Positions 136 to 61,491 are shown, numbered from the stretch's first letter. The stretch is DNA of 64,000 nt from Candidatus Pacearchaeota archaeon (GCA_018304175.1 JAGVWT010000003.1:33982-97981); one strand, 5' to 3'. The notes: a model not told the origin generated them from the letters alone. Translations and numbers: made by a program.

Positions 136-210
136 AATTTTATAAAATAAAATCAGTTTATTAAATTGTTGTTTGAGTACCACCATAAAATTTTTAAACC
201 TGCTCCTGTT

Positions 211-546
211 ATGAAAAAAATGGGATACCGATTCTTTGCATATAGGAGCAATCTTACTTTTAAAGATAGTAATAAACCATTATTTGGATATTTGCTGGCA
301 AAAGATAAAAAATCATTTGGAGATGTTCTCGATAATATGTCAGTTAATGATGTTAATTGTATTTCTAGAATTGTTGATCAAGCTAGTGAAAGTGCAAGGA
401 AAGGCGAATTACATGAAACTAAAATATCTTTAGATAAGCTGCTTGAATTGGCAAGAAGTAAAAATTTTGATGCAGATGAAGTTTACAAAGTCATATCCTT
501 AGAAGCATTCTATTATAATCAAAATCAGGCAATGTCAGTTCAATAA
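211..546 (+). CDS. hypothetical protein
   Basis: The ORF track starts at a TTG at 166; the first ATG is at 211. A TATA-like ttttataaaataaa lies at 139-152. No recognisable motifs. Confidence 0.4.
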   Translation: MKKMGYRFFAYRSNLTFKDSNKPLFGYLLAKDKKSFGDVLDNMSVNDVNCISRIVDQASESARKGELHETKISLDKLLELARSKNFDADEVYKVISLEAFYYNQNQAMSVQ

Positions 547-576
547 CTTTTTATATATGATTTGTTTTTTCTTTTG

Positions 577-1899
577 ATGAAAACTCAACAACTAGTACCA
601 AAGCCAGGAGACTATGTTGAAGTTCATTTAATCAAGAAAATTTATGAGGGAACTTTGCTTGAGTCGCCCAAAGATGATAAAGGAATTATCTTGCTAAAAC
701 TTGATTCTGGTTACAATATTGGTTTTAACAGAAAGGATATATTGGAAGTAAAACTTGTAAAGAAAGCTTTAAGCAAAAAAGAAGAAGTCGAAGTAAAAAC
801 TTCGAAAGAAAAGCCCAACATTGCTATGATTATTACAGGGGGAACAATTTCTGCGAGGATGAATCCGAGGAAAGGAGGTGTTGATTGGTTGGACAGTCCT
901 GAAAGTTTGTTTAAATTTTATCCGGAAATTTTTGATTTAGTGAACATTTCTAAAGTTGAAGTCCCATTCATGAAAGCTTCAGAAGACATGGATTTTAAAG
1001 ATTGGCAAAAACTTGCGAAAGTAACAGAGAGATTTTTGAACGATGGTAGTATTAAAGGTGTGATAATTACTCATGGAACAGATTTTCTGCACTACACAGC
1101 TGCCGCATTAAGTTTTTTTCTCGGAAATCTGAATAAACCCGTCGTTTTAACCTACAGCCAGCGCTCGATAGATCGTGCAAGTAGTGATGCTAATTTGAAT
1201 CTTCAATGCAGTGCTTTGGCTGCAATTTCAGATATTGCAGAAGTAATGCTTGTAGGGCATGCAACTAGCAATGATGATTTTTGTTATGCAATTCCTGGAA
1301 CAAAAGTAAGAAAAATGCACACATCTCGGAGAGATGCTTTCAAAGCTATAAACAGAAAACCTTTTGCGAAAATATTTCCAAATCAGATGGAAATTTTGAG
1401 TGATTTCAATAACAGAAATTCAGGCAAGAACAATAAAATAAAAATTGATGCTAAATTTGAGGAAAAAGTTGCATTAGTTAAATTTTACCCTGGGCAGGAA
1501 CCAGATATTTTAGATTATTACGTGAAGAAAAAATATAAAGGGATTGTTTTGGAGATGAGCGGATTAGGGCATGTTGCATCAAGTCGCGCACGACAAGGAA
1601 GATCATGGATAAAAAAACTCAGAAAAATTCAAAGTAAAGGAATTGTAGTTTGCGCGACGTCGCAAACAATTTATGGCAGAACTGATGCGTTAGTTTACTC
1701 AAACGGCAGGGAGATATTGAATACAGGAGTGATTTATCTTGAAGATATGCTTTCTGAAACAGCGCTTGTAAAATTATCTTGGGTTTTGGGACATAAAGAT
1801 TGGGCAAAAAACAAAGAAACTGTTAAAGAAAAAATGCTCCACAATTTTTCACATGAAATAAACAAAAGACTGGAATTTGAAAAAGATTTTAGCGAGTGA
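577..1899 (+). CDS. gatD: Glu-tRNA(Gln) amidotransferase subunit D (GatD, asparaginase-like)
   Basis: Asparaginase-domain motif IAMIITGGTI and HGTD; about 440 aa; immediately followed by gatE. The first ATG is at 577 (the track starts at a TTG at 562). Confidence 0.85.
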   Translation: MKTQQLVPKPGDYVEVHLIKKIYEGTLLESPKDDKGIILLKLDSGYNIGFNRKDILEVKLVKKALSKKEEVEVKTSKEKPNIAMIITGGTISARMNPRKGGVDWLDSPESLFKFYPEIFDLVNISKVEVPFMKASEDMDFKDWQKLAKVTERFLNDGSIKGVIITHGTDFLHYTAAALSFFLGNLNKPVVLTYSQRSIDRASSDANLNLQCSALAAISDIAEVMLVGHATSNDDFCYAIPGTKVRKMHTSRRDAFKAINRKPFAKIFPNQMEILSDFNNRNSGKNNKIKIDAKFEEKVALVKFYPGQEPDILDYYVKKKYKGIVLEMSGLGHVASSRARQGRSWIKKLRKIQSKGIVVCATSQTIYGRTDALVYSNGREILNTGVIYLEDMLSETALVKLSWVLGHKDWAKNKETVKEKMLHNFSHEINKRLEFEKDFSE

Positions 1900-1900
1900 A

Positions 1901-2242
1901 ATGGTTTTTGAAAATATCCTTGAGTTTACTCAAAAAATAGAGCCTGTTTGGACAATTATTTTAGTTCCAGTTTGGCAAGAACTTGTTTTTAGGTATTTGC
2001 CTTATAAATTTTGGTATTTGCCGTCGGGAAATATTTTATTAGTTGGAATTGTAAGCTCCATAGTTTTTGCTCTTATTCATTTGTATTTCGGCAAATGGTT
2101 TGTTTTGCTTGCTTTTTTTGCAGGGTTACTTTATTGGGTGATTATGGTAAAATTCGGGTTTATATACGCTATTTTAGCTCACTCTGCTATCAACATTATT
2201 GACTTATCATTTGGGATAAGATATTATGTAATGAACTTGTAG
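1901..2242 (+). CDS. CPBP-family intramembrane metalloprotease (CAAX protease/Abi-like), short
   Basis: All three CPBP motifs are present: QELVFRY (EExxxR-like), FALIHL (FxxxH) and HSAINI (HxxxN). Hydrophobic helices. Confidence 0.6.
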   Translation: MVFENILEFTQKIEPVWTIILVPVWQELVFRYLPYKFWYLPSGNILLVGIVSSIVFALIHLYFGKWFVLLAFFAGLLYWVIMVKFGFIYAILAHSAINIIDLSFGIRYYVMNL

Positions 2243-2304: not shown

Positions 2305-3750
2305 ATGGAAATTGATTACAAAAAAATTGGTTTGAAATGCGGTTTGGAGATTCATCAACAGCTTAATACTAAGAAGCTTTTTTGTGATTGTCCGAGTGTT
2401 TTGAGAAATGAGGTGCATGATTTTTTTGTAAAAAGAAAACTTCATGCTGTTGCTGGAGAAAGCGGTGAGGTAGATGTTGCCGCGAAATATCAAACTTCTC
2501 TTGAGAAACAATTTATTTATGAAGGCTATAAAGATACAACATGCTTAGTTGAACTTGACGAGTCACCTCCGAAGGAAATAAATTCTAAAGCATTAGGAAT
2601 AGTATTACAGATTTCTTTGTTACTCAATGCGAAAATTTTTCCTGTTACACAAATAATGAGAAAAACGGTCGTTGATGGTTCAAACACTTCGGGGTTTCAG
2701 AGAACTGTTTTGATTGCTCACGACGGTTTCATAGAAACTCGGGAAGGAAAAATTGGTATTGATTCTATTTGTCTGGAAGAAGATTCCGCTAGAAAAATAT
2801 CTGAAACTGAGAATGGCTTGACTTACAGATTGGACAGGTTAGGGGTTCCTCTTGTTGAAATAGCAACTTCTGCAGAAATAAAATCACCAACACAGGCGAG
2901 AGAAGTTGCTTTGCATATCGGAAAAATTCTTCGAAGTTGTAATGTTAAAAGAGGAATTGGCACAATAAGGCAAGATGTAAATGTTTCTGTAAAAAAAGGG
3001 AGCAGGGTTGAAATAAAAGGTGTCCAGGATTTGAAGCTTATTGACAAGGCAGTTGAAAAGGAAGCCATAAGACAATCTAGTCTTATCAAACAAAACAAAA
3101 ATGTAATATCAGAAGTCAGAAAAGCCTTGCTTAACGGTGAGACAGAGTTTTTGAGACCAATGCCGGGAAGTGCAAGAATGTATCCTGAGACAGATTTACC
3201 TTTGTTGAAAATATCAAGAGATTTGATAAATGAAGTAAAGAAAACCTTACCTCGCTTGAGAGATGAAACTGAAAGAGAATTACAAGACACCGGATTGAAT
3301 TCAGAGATGATTAGGCTCTTATTTAAACGTAATAAAATAGATGAATTTAAAGAATTGCAGAAAACTCTTGATAACCCAAAACTTATAGCAAATATTCTTT
3401 TAGTTTACCCAAAAGAAATATCTAGTCATAGAAAAATTCCTCAAAAAAGAGTAGAAGAAATTCTAAATATTGATATTACAGAGTCTATTTTGAAAAACTT
3501 AAAGCAAAACAAAATTTCTGAGTCTCATGTGAAGCACGTTCTTGAAGAAATAGCTTCGGGAAAATCTATTGAAGAAGCGATTAAGCTGGAAACAGAAGAT
3601 GAAAATATTCTGGAAGAAAAAATTTTTAAGATAGTAAAAGAAAAACCAGGGCTTTCACATCACGCGTATATGGGAATTATTATGAAAGAGCTTAAAGGCA
3701 AGGTTTCAGGCAAAGAGGCAATGGAAATTATTAAAAAGTATGTTCAATAA
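2305..3750 (+). CDS. gatE: Glu-tRNA(Gln) amidotransferase subunit E (GatE)
   Basis: N-terminus KIGLKCGLEIHQQLNTKKLFCDC (GatB/E-fold signature); located directly after gatD. Confidence 0.85.
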   Translation: MEIDYKKIGLKCGLEIHQQLNTKKLFCDCPSVLRNEVHDFFVKRKLHAVAGESGEVDVAAKYQTSLEKQFIYEGYKDTTCLVELDESPPKEINSKALGIVLQISLLLNAKIFPVTQIMRKTVVDGSNTSGFQRTVLIAHDGFIETREGKIGIDSICLEEDSARKISETENGLTYRLDRLGVPLVEIATSAEIKSPTQAREVALHIGKILRSCNVKRGIGTIRQDVNVSVKKGSRVEIKGVQDLKLIDKAVEKEAIRQSSLIKQNKNVISEVRKALLNGETEFLRPMPGSARMYPETDLPLLKISRDLINEVKKTLPRLRDETERELQDTGLNSEMIRLLFKRNKIDEFKELQKTLDNPKLIANILLVYPKEISSHRKIPQKRVEEILNIDITESILKNLKQNKISESHVKHVLEEIASGKSIEEAIKLETEDENILEEKIFKIVKEKPGLSHHAYMGIIMKELKGKVSGKEAMEIIKKYVQ

Positions 3751-13897: not shown

Positions 13898-13937
13898 CTA
13901 AAAACCTTTAAATACGTTTTTCTTTTTCTCAAATCAT

Positions 13938-14030
13938 GTCCCGGTAGCTCAGCAGGTAGAGCACATGACTGTTAGAATTTTGAAAATTGCAGCGATCATG
14001 GGGTCGTAGGTTCGAGTCCTACCCGGGACG
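13938..14030 (+). tRNA. tRNA-Asn (anticodon GTT) with a 20-nt intron (13975-13994) at the canonical 37/38 position
   Basis: Manual fold: acceptor GTCCCGG/CCGGGAC, D-arm GCTC-AGCAGGTA-GAGC, anticodon stem CATGA/TCATG, loop CTGTTA|intron|A, T-arm GTAGG-TTCGAGT-CCTAC, discriminator G. No CCA is encoded. Confidence 0.7.
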
Positions 14031-26058: not shown

Positions 26059-26090
26059 ACAATTTTATAAATGGATTTGGTTTTGATTTT

Positions 26091-26186
26091 AAGCGAGCCT
26101 GTAGCTCATGAGGGGCATATCCCCTTACAATAACCCCTATCGTTAAAACCGATTGGTCGCTACAGTCTTGAACAGAAAAATGAAGC
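26091..26186 (+). repeat. insert-like segment bounded by 18-bp direct repeats of tRNA-Ile positions -4..+14 (first repeat copy plus about 75-bp insert)
   Basis: aagcgagcctgtagctca occurs at 26091-26108 and again at 26184-26201, where it is the real tRNA 5' end. The insert contains hairpins (ggggcatatcccc) and a ggtcgctacag motif. Confidence 0.6.
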
Positions 26187-26261
26187 GAGCCTGTAGCTCA
26201 GCCCGGTTAGAGCACTGCTCTGATAAGGCAGGGGTCCGAGGTTCAAATCCTCGCAGGCTCA
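26187..26261 (+). tRNA. tRNA-Ile (anticodon GAT)
   Basis: Manual fold: acceptor GAGCCTG/CAGGCTC, D-arm GCTC-(10 nt)-GAGC, anticodon stem CTGCT/GGCAG, loop CTGATAA, T-arm CGAGG-TTCAAAT-CCTCG, discriminator A. Confidence 0.8.
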
Positions 26262-47801: not shown

Positions 47802-47924
47802 TGGCCCCGATGGGATTTGAACCCACGACACCTGGATCTCTCCAACATTGTTTTTTTCGAACTTCCACGAATTAAAATTCGCGTTGTAAGAGTCCAGTGC
47901 TCTACCAGGCTGAGCTACGGAGCC
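47802..47924 (-). tRNA. tRNA-Lys (anticodon CTT) with a 49-nt intron (47838-47886) in the anticodon loop
   Basis: Manual fold of the reverse complement: acceptor GGCTCCG/CGGGGCC (one GU), D-arm GCTC-AGCCTGGTA-GAGC, anticodon stem CTGGA/TCCAG enclosing CTCTTA|49 nt|A, T-arm GTGGG-TTCAAAT-CCCAT, discriminator A. Confidence 0.6.
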
Positions 47925-48047
47925 TTTTCTGTTTTTGGCGATGTAGCGACTTGCGATTTCGTCGGAGGCAATTGGAAATCGCCTTTCCTAACGAAAAGGA
48001 AGGTGTGTGAGAGGAAACCTTGGTTTCCTTCATGAGCTACGGAGCCT
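47925..48047 (-). repeat. insert-like segment upstream of tRNA-Lys, bounded by 18-bp direct repeats of tRNA positions -4..+14; contains R1 hairpin copy C (47953-47982)
   Basis: aaaaggctccgtagctca (minus-strand reading) occurs at the real tRNA 5' end and again about 105 bp upstream (plus strand 48030-48047). The interior shares tga-Rgg-hairpin, gtcgctaca and acag(aaaa) with the tRNA-Ile insert. Confidence 0.6.
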
Positions 48048-48088
48048 TTTTCTAATTATATTGGTTAGTTAAACACTTAAATATTTTT

Positions 48089-61426: not shown

Positions 61427-61491
61427 GTCTAAATTTTCAGTTTCTTACTTAATAGAAAGACATTAAAATAAATAATTCTCTGAAATGATAA

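Follow-up and report, generated by a model that had tools for sequence, protein, structure and literature searches.

A probable intron-related repeat element between promoter and tRNA gene in DPANN archaea

Two of the four tRNA genes in a 64,000-nucleotide stretch of DNA from a Candidatus Pacearchaeota archaeon (hereafter the window) are separated from their TATA box by a short insert that lies between two direct copies of the tRNA 5' end, the second of which begins the intact gene. On balance, the probable explanation is that this insert is an intron-related repeat element of DPANN archaea, the arm of which sequesters the orphan tRNA fragment left upstream, and that the tRNA is released from a leader of about 92 nt. 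The inserts belong to a family that is large, widespread among Pace-, Woese- and Nanoarchaeota (DPANN), and apparently not previously described. A first-pass annotation of the window had already regarded the element as undescribed, which agrees with the outcome of the searches: Rfam 15 gave no match at E<=10 for 26085-26190 and only noise (12-14 bits) for 47920-48055, and no description of this architecture was found in the literature searched. The nearest reports concern the tRNA-Thr gene of Caldiarchaeum (PMC3293823), DPANN genomes, which are stated to contain unidentified disrupted tRNA genes (PMC5829648), and, as a general claim, direct repeats near intron borders (PMC11782384). The window has a GC content of 33% and encodes archaeal DNA ligase, L15e, MetRS and topoisomerase, and the proteins flanking the inserts have their best matches in Candidatus Pacearchaeota and Nanoarchaeia, which places the organism among the DPANN archaea.

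At the tRNA-Ile locus (plus strand), a repeat search of the window identified an exact 18-nt direct repeat, AAGCGAGCCTGTAGCTCA, at 26091-26108 and 26183-26200, with a spacing of 92. The first-pass annotation had located the first copy correctly and the second one position too far downstream (26184-26201), and its insert of 75 bp measures 74 bp (26109-26182). Its assignment of the repeat to positions -4 to +14 of the intact tRNA-Ile holds, with ARAGORN and Rfam both placing the gene at 26187-26261. This tRNA-Ile(GAT) (Rfam RF00005, 69.8 bits) has all 71 model positions present 3' of the insert. Upstream, residues 26095-26108 of the orphan copy correspond to tRNA-Ile positions 1-14, and the TATA box TTTATAAA (26064-26071), read from the sequence as the original tRNA-Ile promoter, starts 31 nt before the orphan +1. 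The insert itself contains, from 5' to 3', a hairpin P1 predicted by folding (TGAGGGG / CATAT / CCCCTTA; 26109-26127), the conserved module core CCCCTTACAATAACCCC of type A defined by pattern scan of metagenomes (26121-26137), a second small hairpin in the fold (TCG TTAAAAC CGA; 26140-26152), an arm X' (GCTACAGTCTT; 26159-26169) that emerged from the inverted repeats as complementary to tRNA positions 1-11 of either copy, and an A-rich single-stranded linker (26170-26186), unpaired in the fold. This linker reaches the tRNA 5' end, and its last 4 nt are part of the second repeat copy (26183-26200), which forms the functional tRNA start. The opening of the insert had been described as TGA followed by a GGGG hairpin; both are present, with the correction that the TGA belongs to the stem itself and pairs within TGAGGGG-CATAT-CCCCTTA. 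The complementarity to the D-stem region was recovered by the inverted-repeat search as GCTACAG versus CTGTAGC. The loop of hairpin 2 is TATA-like (TTAAAA begins at -44 from the tRNA-Ile +1), and the same sub-type of hairpin 2 is found before other tRNAs in L131 and L151. C/D-box, H/ACA and K-turn readings of the insert were considered by eye and rejected, as the TGA pairs with TTA/TCA in a stem and there is neither a D box nor a pseudouridylation pocket.

A like architecture had been noticed at tRNA-Lys and is borne out on the minus strand, where an exact repeat, AAAAGGCTCCGTAGCTCA, occurs at 48050-48033 and 47928-47911 (spacing 122) on either side of a 104-bp insert (47929-48032) that by sequence and fold belongs to the same family as the Ile insert. 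The orphan copy detected by the repeat search (48033-48050) corresponds to positions -4 to +14 of tRNA-Lys. The insert contains a P1 hairpin (TGAAGGAAACC..GGTTTCCTCTCA, 48032-48008) followed by CACAC and an X' arm (GCTACATCGCC, 47947-47937), and the second repeat copy enters the intact tRNA-Lys(CTT) assigned by Rfam to 47924-47802 (47802-47928 including the repeat). This gene is complete apart from a separate 49-nt canonical intron with a strict bulge-helix-bulge (BHB), the sequence of which is unrelated to the Lys 5' insert. The insert does share ..TGCCTCCGACGAAATCGCA.. with the anticodon-loop intron of a tRNA-Lys in L029, with likeness along its length. The window tRNAs Asn and Trp have no insert, and their TATA boxes end 21-23 nt before +1; tRNA-Asn(GTT) (13938-14030, plus strand) is interrupted at 37/38 by a 20-nt intron, the strict BHB of which has its 5' splice site after nt 37 and flanks of 3/3. 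Such genes matter for annotation, as tRNA finders miss or mis-call them: ARAGORN in default mode missed tRNA-Lys(CTT), which was detected by Rfam only, and labelled tRNA-Asn as a suppressor, tRNA-Stop(tta). Moreover, orphan fragments can seed assembly chimeras.

To what extent the inserts recur was addressed with a pattern consisting of GTAGCTCATGA, an 81-111 nt gap and GTAGCTCAG, scanned against one genome per species, which returned 32 loci. Nine of these, three of them in a single Pacearchaeota genome, come from seven genomes of Pace-, Woese- or Nanoarchaeota and combine repeats of 10-109 nt with inserts homologous to those of the window; the other 23 are bacterial and have in common merely the 8-9 nt forced by the pattern. 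Since the pattern fixes only GTAGCTCATGA and GTAGCTCAG, the homology of the inserts in the nine DPANN loci excludes chance. Members of the family share one layout, in which tRNA positions 1-14 are followed by the TGAGG hairpin module, the complementary arm, an A-rich linker (about 1-31 nt) and a second copy of positions 1-14 entering the whole tRNA, the element being about 55-120 nt in size. Modules are of type A (TGAGGGG, loop, CCCCTTACANTAACCCC), as in the Ile insert, or of type B (TGAGGACAACC..GGTTTTCCCTCACACC), to which the Lys insert is close. The type A pattern TGAGGGGN{3,20}CCCCTTACANTAACCCC, which is present once in the 64-kb window, was found in 112 metagenome stretches at 113 unique sites. 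About 40 of these 113 sites lie directly after tRNA position 14, with the second fragment copy 72-135 nt downstream, and in this type A metagenome scan the 5' inserts precede intact Phe, Lys, Ile, Thr, Ser, Ala, Arg, Met and Tyr tRNAs. A tRNA-Ile(GAT) with a 5' insert was found in three organisms, i.e., those of the window, L094 and L101. Short repeats in an AT-rich region might suggest local slippage or a chance duplication in which no element is involved, but the recurrence of the insert in many genomes before different tRNAs, set against bacterial chance matches that share so few nucleotides, refutes this reading and makes it hardly conceivable.

The module is not confined to the 5' part of tRNA genes. 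Approximately 14-15 of the type A sites are ordinary introns at 37/38, without duplication, and in L029 and L035 the anticodon-loop intron begins with the same kind of module as the 5' insert of that tRNA. A few sites lie directly after tRNA 3' ends. In L066, L070, L072, L081 and L148 the module abuts the T-loop of a tRNA gene in antisense orientation; the final ~20 nt of that tRNA are present twice, and the arm is complementary to T-loop/stem sequence. Two such antisense units follow each other in tandem in L070. The remaining type A sites are in spacers, at ORF ends and in tandem arrays. By what route introns spread among archaeal tRNA genes, and what causes such genes to be disrupted or split, are unsettled matters, and here one family exists in four states within one organism group, namely BHB intron, 5' insertion, 3'/antisense insertion (both insertions with exon duplication) and spacer repeat arrays. 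This four-state series represents a natural test set for models of intron gain and tRNA disruption.

With regard to the origin of the 5' inserts, sequence comparison supports the view that something entered a pre-existing tRNA gene after position 14, with the intact tRNA ending up downstream and the promoter in front of the orphan copy. An empty syntenic locus is present in L176-L179, in which the gene order is MetRS / Zn-ribbon protein / tRNA-Ile(GAT) / L15e and the tRNA-Ile(GAT) has no insert and directly follows the TATA box CTTATAAAT, which ends ~23 nt before +1. Synteny was established through the downstream neighbor, a Zn-ribbon/Hsp20-like protein with orthologs of ~54% identity; the upstream flavodoxin-like ORF has relatives at 70-74% identity without an adjoining tRNA. 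Because in L176-L179 the TATA box adjoins a tRNA-Ile without insert, the Ile element is an insertion. The first-pass annotation had proposed an insertion after position 14 with a target duplication of 18 bp, and had named the empty-site comparison as a check. The insertion withstands that comparison; a target duplication of fixed length is not borne out by the family. In 38 tRNA cases the repeat is 10-54 nt long, with a mode of 14 and a median of 15 (lengths seen were 10, 13, 14 in ten cases, 15, 16, 17, 18, 19, 21 and 54 nt). Its 3' boundary is position 14 in every tRNA case, and its 5' boundary is mostly +1 or a few A-rich bases further 5'. Occasionally the whole promoter lies inside the repeat, as in L042 and, imperfectly, L031 and L022. 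Given the family mode of 14 (+1 to +14), the 4 extra nt of the Ile 18-mer are probably a chance extension in A-rich sequence. Among the loci compared there was no pair of filled and empty alleles at one and the same locus, and where other samples contain contigs of this organism, these do not differ from the window.

Which of the two copies belongs to the functional gene can be judged from their differences. In all eight pairs that differ within the tRNA part, it is the upstream copy that deviates from the canonical tRNA, e.g., by an A7 opposite C66 in L091, by GGTCCTG versus GGCTCTG in L022, by loss of G1 in L050, L130 and L055, or by a C13 to T change in L094 and L152. This identifies the downstream tRNA as the gene and marks the upstream fragment as a relic. 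A split or permuted tRNA gene was considered as well and rejected, since nothing is missing from the downstream gene and, in diverged pairs, it is the orphan copy that decays. Two contigs are also of note. L168 (about 2630-2860, minus strand of the locus) has an identical downstream gene and a different upstream gene, and at the same place in it a tRNA-Ile(TAT)-like 5' part with intron (GAGCCCATAGCTCAGCC..) is fused to the 3' end of the window's tRNA-Ile(GAT); positions 6-7 are unpaired with 66-67, so that the fusion stems either from a chimeric assembly or from recombination within the tRNA. In L175, a relative (203-1186, minus strand), a 327-aa ORF with faint LAGLIDADG_3 matches lies between the MetRS and Zn-ribbon genes.

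Perfect tandem repeats of the whole unit (L050, L130, L101), repeats that sometimes include the promoter and antisense insertions point to an origin by a DNA-level process, e.g., recombination or templated repair. A staggered-cut transposase is argued against by the variable perfect repeats with one fixed boundary and by the strand-independent insertion. As with att-type repeats, the direct repeats belong to the tRNA gene, and the insert could then be what remains of a site-specific integrative element (virus or plasmid) after most of it was deleted, with the attL/attR repeats left behind. Integration into archaeal tRNA genes does duplicate part of the tRNA: in the Caldiarchaeum tRNA-Thr model of SSV/pNOB8-type integration (Sugahara et al., 2012, PMC3293823), a 5' tRNA-Thr fragment is reported 1.8 kb upstream of the intact gene with a recombinase-encoding element between them, which resembles the present loci in having the 5' fragment upstream and foreign DNA in between. 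A repeat that varies in length with one boundary fixed also fits. However, the DNA in between is here 74-104 bp long, gene-free and part of a hairpin-repeat/intron family, it always abuts position 14 and its arm is complementary to the fragment. No integrase lies between or beside the repeats of the window (the 74- and 104-bp inserts contain no element genes, and neighboring genes encode flavodoxin-like, Zn-ribbon, thioredoxin and similar proteins), and of two pattern scans of viral contigs one was empty and the other gave 12 chance matches without duplication, mostly phage tRNA promoters or coding sequence, and thus no real match. This reading would moreover require ~40 independent loci all to have been trimmed to 55-120 nt with one and the same module, which also exists as an ordinary intron and as a spacer repeat, and we consider it very unlikely. 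A further comparison is with MITE/REP-like elements, which are likewise short, hairpin-bearing, multi-copy and non-coding and occur in intergenic or transcribed spacers and in tandem arrays. Copies of the present element are dispersed as those of a MITE or transposon would be (113 metagenome sites, nine loci in seven genomes, two copies in the window), but it differs in having a target-matched internal arm and a duplication of 10-54 nt that is not fixed. No terminal inverted repeats link the ends of the inserts; the inverted repeats join the arm with the tRNA fragment.

The kinship with archaeal BHB introns of tRNA genes, which include families that have moved between tRNA positions, is close. 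In sequence, the insert is homologous to genuine introns in the anticodon loops of related genomes. It also shares their order, in which the exon end is followed by the module and then by a 3' segment that pairs back to this end; the arm's GCTA pairs with positions 8-11, where the central helix of a BHB would be. A strict BHB scanner, for which the Asn and Lys introns of the window served as positive control (both with 3/3 flanks), recognized a BHB in 12 of 14 module copies located in anticodon loops; here the 5' splice site immediately precedes TGAGGGG, and nothing is duplicated. This relationship could suggest that the 5' insert is a non-canonical intron, an alternative already raised in the first-pass annotation, in which the upstream copy would be a leaderless 5' exon and the endonuclease would remove the insert plus the second copy, with the ligase joining positions 14 and 15. 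Such a pathway would not need RNase P, and it would account for the promoter lying at leaderless distance from the upstream copy. In addition, the only 4-nt palindrome of the repeat, AGCU at 9-12, would put the BHB cut at 14/15, i.e., at the repeat boundary, and DPANN endonucleases with an L3 loop have been linked to more tRNA gene disruption (PMC5829648). However, the BHB check named in the same annotation speaks against it. For the Ile and Lys precursors the scanner that recovers the real introns finds no BHB that would produce a tRNA. In the family, 29 of 38 cases have no BHB of any kind starting in copy 1, and in 22 of 38 a central AGCU:AGCU helix is left with flanking helices of just 1/0 or 1/1 bp. 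On these grounds, a BHB made of the AGCU palindromes of the two copies was rejected. The helix between copy 1 and arm X', which covaries, is incompatible with an AGCU BHB. In the 5' inserts the GCTA helix continues where the second bulge belongs; this bulge and the flanking helices are lacking. Splicing is furthermore unneeded, as the insert precedes an intact tRNA, and exon 1-14 is duplicated, which is never the case for module copies at the canonical position. Finally, the upstream copy is the defective one in every differing pair, and in L022, L031 and L042 the second copy has its own promoter. Removal as an intron is thus quite unlikely.

The preferred reading, in which the arm sequesters the orphan fragment, rests on the pairing of the arm X' with the tRNA 5' sequence, with which it also covaries at positions 6-7. 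In an alignment anchored on the GCTA of the arm and tRNA positions 8-11, position 7 is paired with the arm in 28 of 30 members (pair types G-C, A-T and T-A) and position 6 in 24 of 30, again with three pair types. Over positions 3-7, 96 of 150 cells are paired versus 68.9 +/- 4.6 upon permutation (maximum 83 in 1000 permutations). Modules can be near-identical and still have arms that fit three different tRNAs, as seen in the window, L131 and L151. Folding each leader alone pairs the orphan fragment with the arm and closes the leader domain (z = -3.3 and -4.5). In MFE folds of the whole precursors, the orphan copy pairs instead with the 3' acceptor strand of the tRNA, and an unshielded fragment could thus do harm. 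A consensus fold of 27 leaders yields P1 as the sole helix, all 7 pairs of which are invariant and without covariation, an invariance that is partly set by the exact search pattern. MAFFT misaligned the variable 3' halves of these leaders, so that the arm was analyzed with the anchored script. Antisense insertions at tRNA 3' ends carry matching arms as well, and the arm may therefore be a product of the insertion mechanism rather than a selected tRNA shield.

Promoter positions agree with a displaced gene. In 37 loci, a TATA-like hexamer starting at -36 to -27, with a peak at -31/-32, was present before copy 1 in 27 and before copy 2 in 8. TATA boxes end 20-24 nt before tRNA +1, both in the window (13907-13937, 61463-61491 and 26064-26094) and in L176 (about 1956-1990, minus strand), a spacing that places the transcription start at about tRNA +1. 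It had been remarked that TTTATAAA at 26064-26071 precedes the orphan copy, and indeed neither window insert has a TATA box suitably spaced from the second copy. The simplest assumption is therefore that the tRNA is produced by read-through from the old promoter. From the sequence we infer that the tRNA would be transcribed in this manner through the element. At some loci (L022, L031, L042) the second copy has a promoter of its own, and T5-T6 runs in some inserts (L050, L069, L164) could terminate archaeal transcription before the tRNA.

Each element combines a 5' hairpin module (TGAGG...) with a 3' arm that is the complement of the sequence immediately preceding the insertion point, a layout that gives a normal BHB intron in the anticodon loop. 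After tRNA position 14 no BHB arises, and the element occurs there only with a second 1-14 copy and hence with a complete tRNA downstream. In the mechanism that we propose, transcription would begin at the orphan copy and pass through the element, and the arm would pair with the orphan fragment once made, locking fragment and module in a closed domain from which the fragment could not compete for the acceptor and D stems of the tRNA. The tRNA would then be cut at its 5' end from a leader of ~92 nt (Ile) or 122 nt (Lys), with RNase P as the simplest candidate. Like transcription through the element, the protection of the fragment by the arm and the 5' cleavage by RNase P are steps that we infer, and in a lineage without RNase P the proposed maturation would fail. 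The RNase P ribonucleoprotein is reported to be near-universal in archaea (PMC6380272). The RNase P-free Nanoarchaeum equitans is reported to have leaderless tRNA genes (PMC10941002), to which the window and its relatives are similar in that the TATA spacing sets the start at about +1; by analogy, this resemblance would count against the RNase P step. Unlike in Nanoarchaeum, the element displaces the promoter by 92-122 nt from the functional 5' end, so that 5' processing is needed again. If the tRNAs are leaderless, as the promoter spacing suggests, these loci reveal which 5' processing activity remains.

The unit formed by orphan copy, module, arm and linker begins exactly at the transcription start and stops at the 5' processing site of the tRNA. 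Such a span would be expected if the unit were a functional leader or a small RNA that selection maintains for its own role, either in the control of tRNA maturation or folding or as a released small RNA; in the latter variant, it could ride on tRNA promoters, introns and trailers and be freed by the tRNA processing enzymes. Consistent with a selected unit, the whole of it is repeated in arrays (L050, L101, L130), the module core is strongly conserved across many genomes and transcript contexts, and tRNA-Ile(GAT) bears the insert in the window, L094 and L101 alike. Inserts are also frequent per genome, and their number, two of four tRNAs here and at least three in one other genome, is above the expectation for merely tolerated junk, which to this extent weighs against the preferred reading. 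Nonetheless, there is no Rfam family match, the P1 pairs are without covariation in a sample picked by exact pattern, and the syntenic ortholog functions without the element. The module moreover lies on either strand relative to tRNAs and rRNA and leaves degenerate tandem fragments, as a selfish repeat does. A selected leader or small RNA is therefore unlikely. Less improbable, although still doubtful, is that the same unit is a self-propagating intron-derived element, copied into tRNA genes through RNA or small circles with the arm built from the target, which in these reduced genomes has now become routine in tRNA expression and perhaps gates maturation. The arm would in that case be made, e.g., by snap-back or templated synthesis. 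If true, this would add a further mode of mobility to those known for archaeal introns or repeats.

Outside tRNA genes, several locations of the type A module deserve mention. In 16S-tRNA-23S spacers (L060 1120-1154, minus strand; L056 226-260, plus strand; L119 593-627, plus strand), the module is antisense to the 23S gene, ~80-120 nt upstream of its 5' end, and several contigs have a conserved flank, ..TTTCATCGAGTA|TGAGGGG. At many other non-tRNA sites (e.g., L062 5166, L073 3626, L099 1815 and L059 6789) the module follows closely behind the end of an ORF, where its TGA could serve as stop codon and T-runs follow the core (CCTCCTTTTT), and it may additionally act there as a terminator or 3'-end element. 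Modules, either whole or truncated, form tandem arrays of up to at least 4 units in L063 (about 5900, minus strand), L067, L137, L104 and L100; the identical spacers of arrays suggest ongoing amplification, by unequal recombination or in a rolling-circle-like manner. Lastly, in the Pacearchaeota tRNA-Met of L042 (about 1863-1990, plus strand), where the 5' duplication comprises 54 nt including the promoter, the tRNA 3' end is duplicated too: GAGTTAAAATCTCTCCAGAGTCAT occurs again ~100 nt downstream, and the sequence between the 3' copies contains CTCGACC, which is complementary to tRNA positions 45-51.
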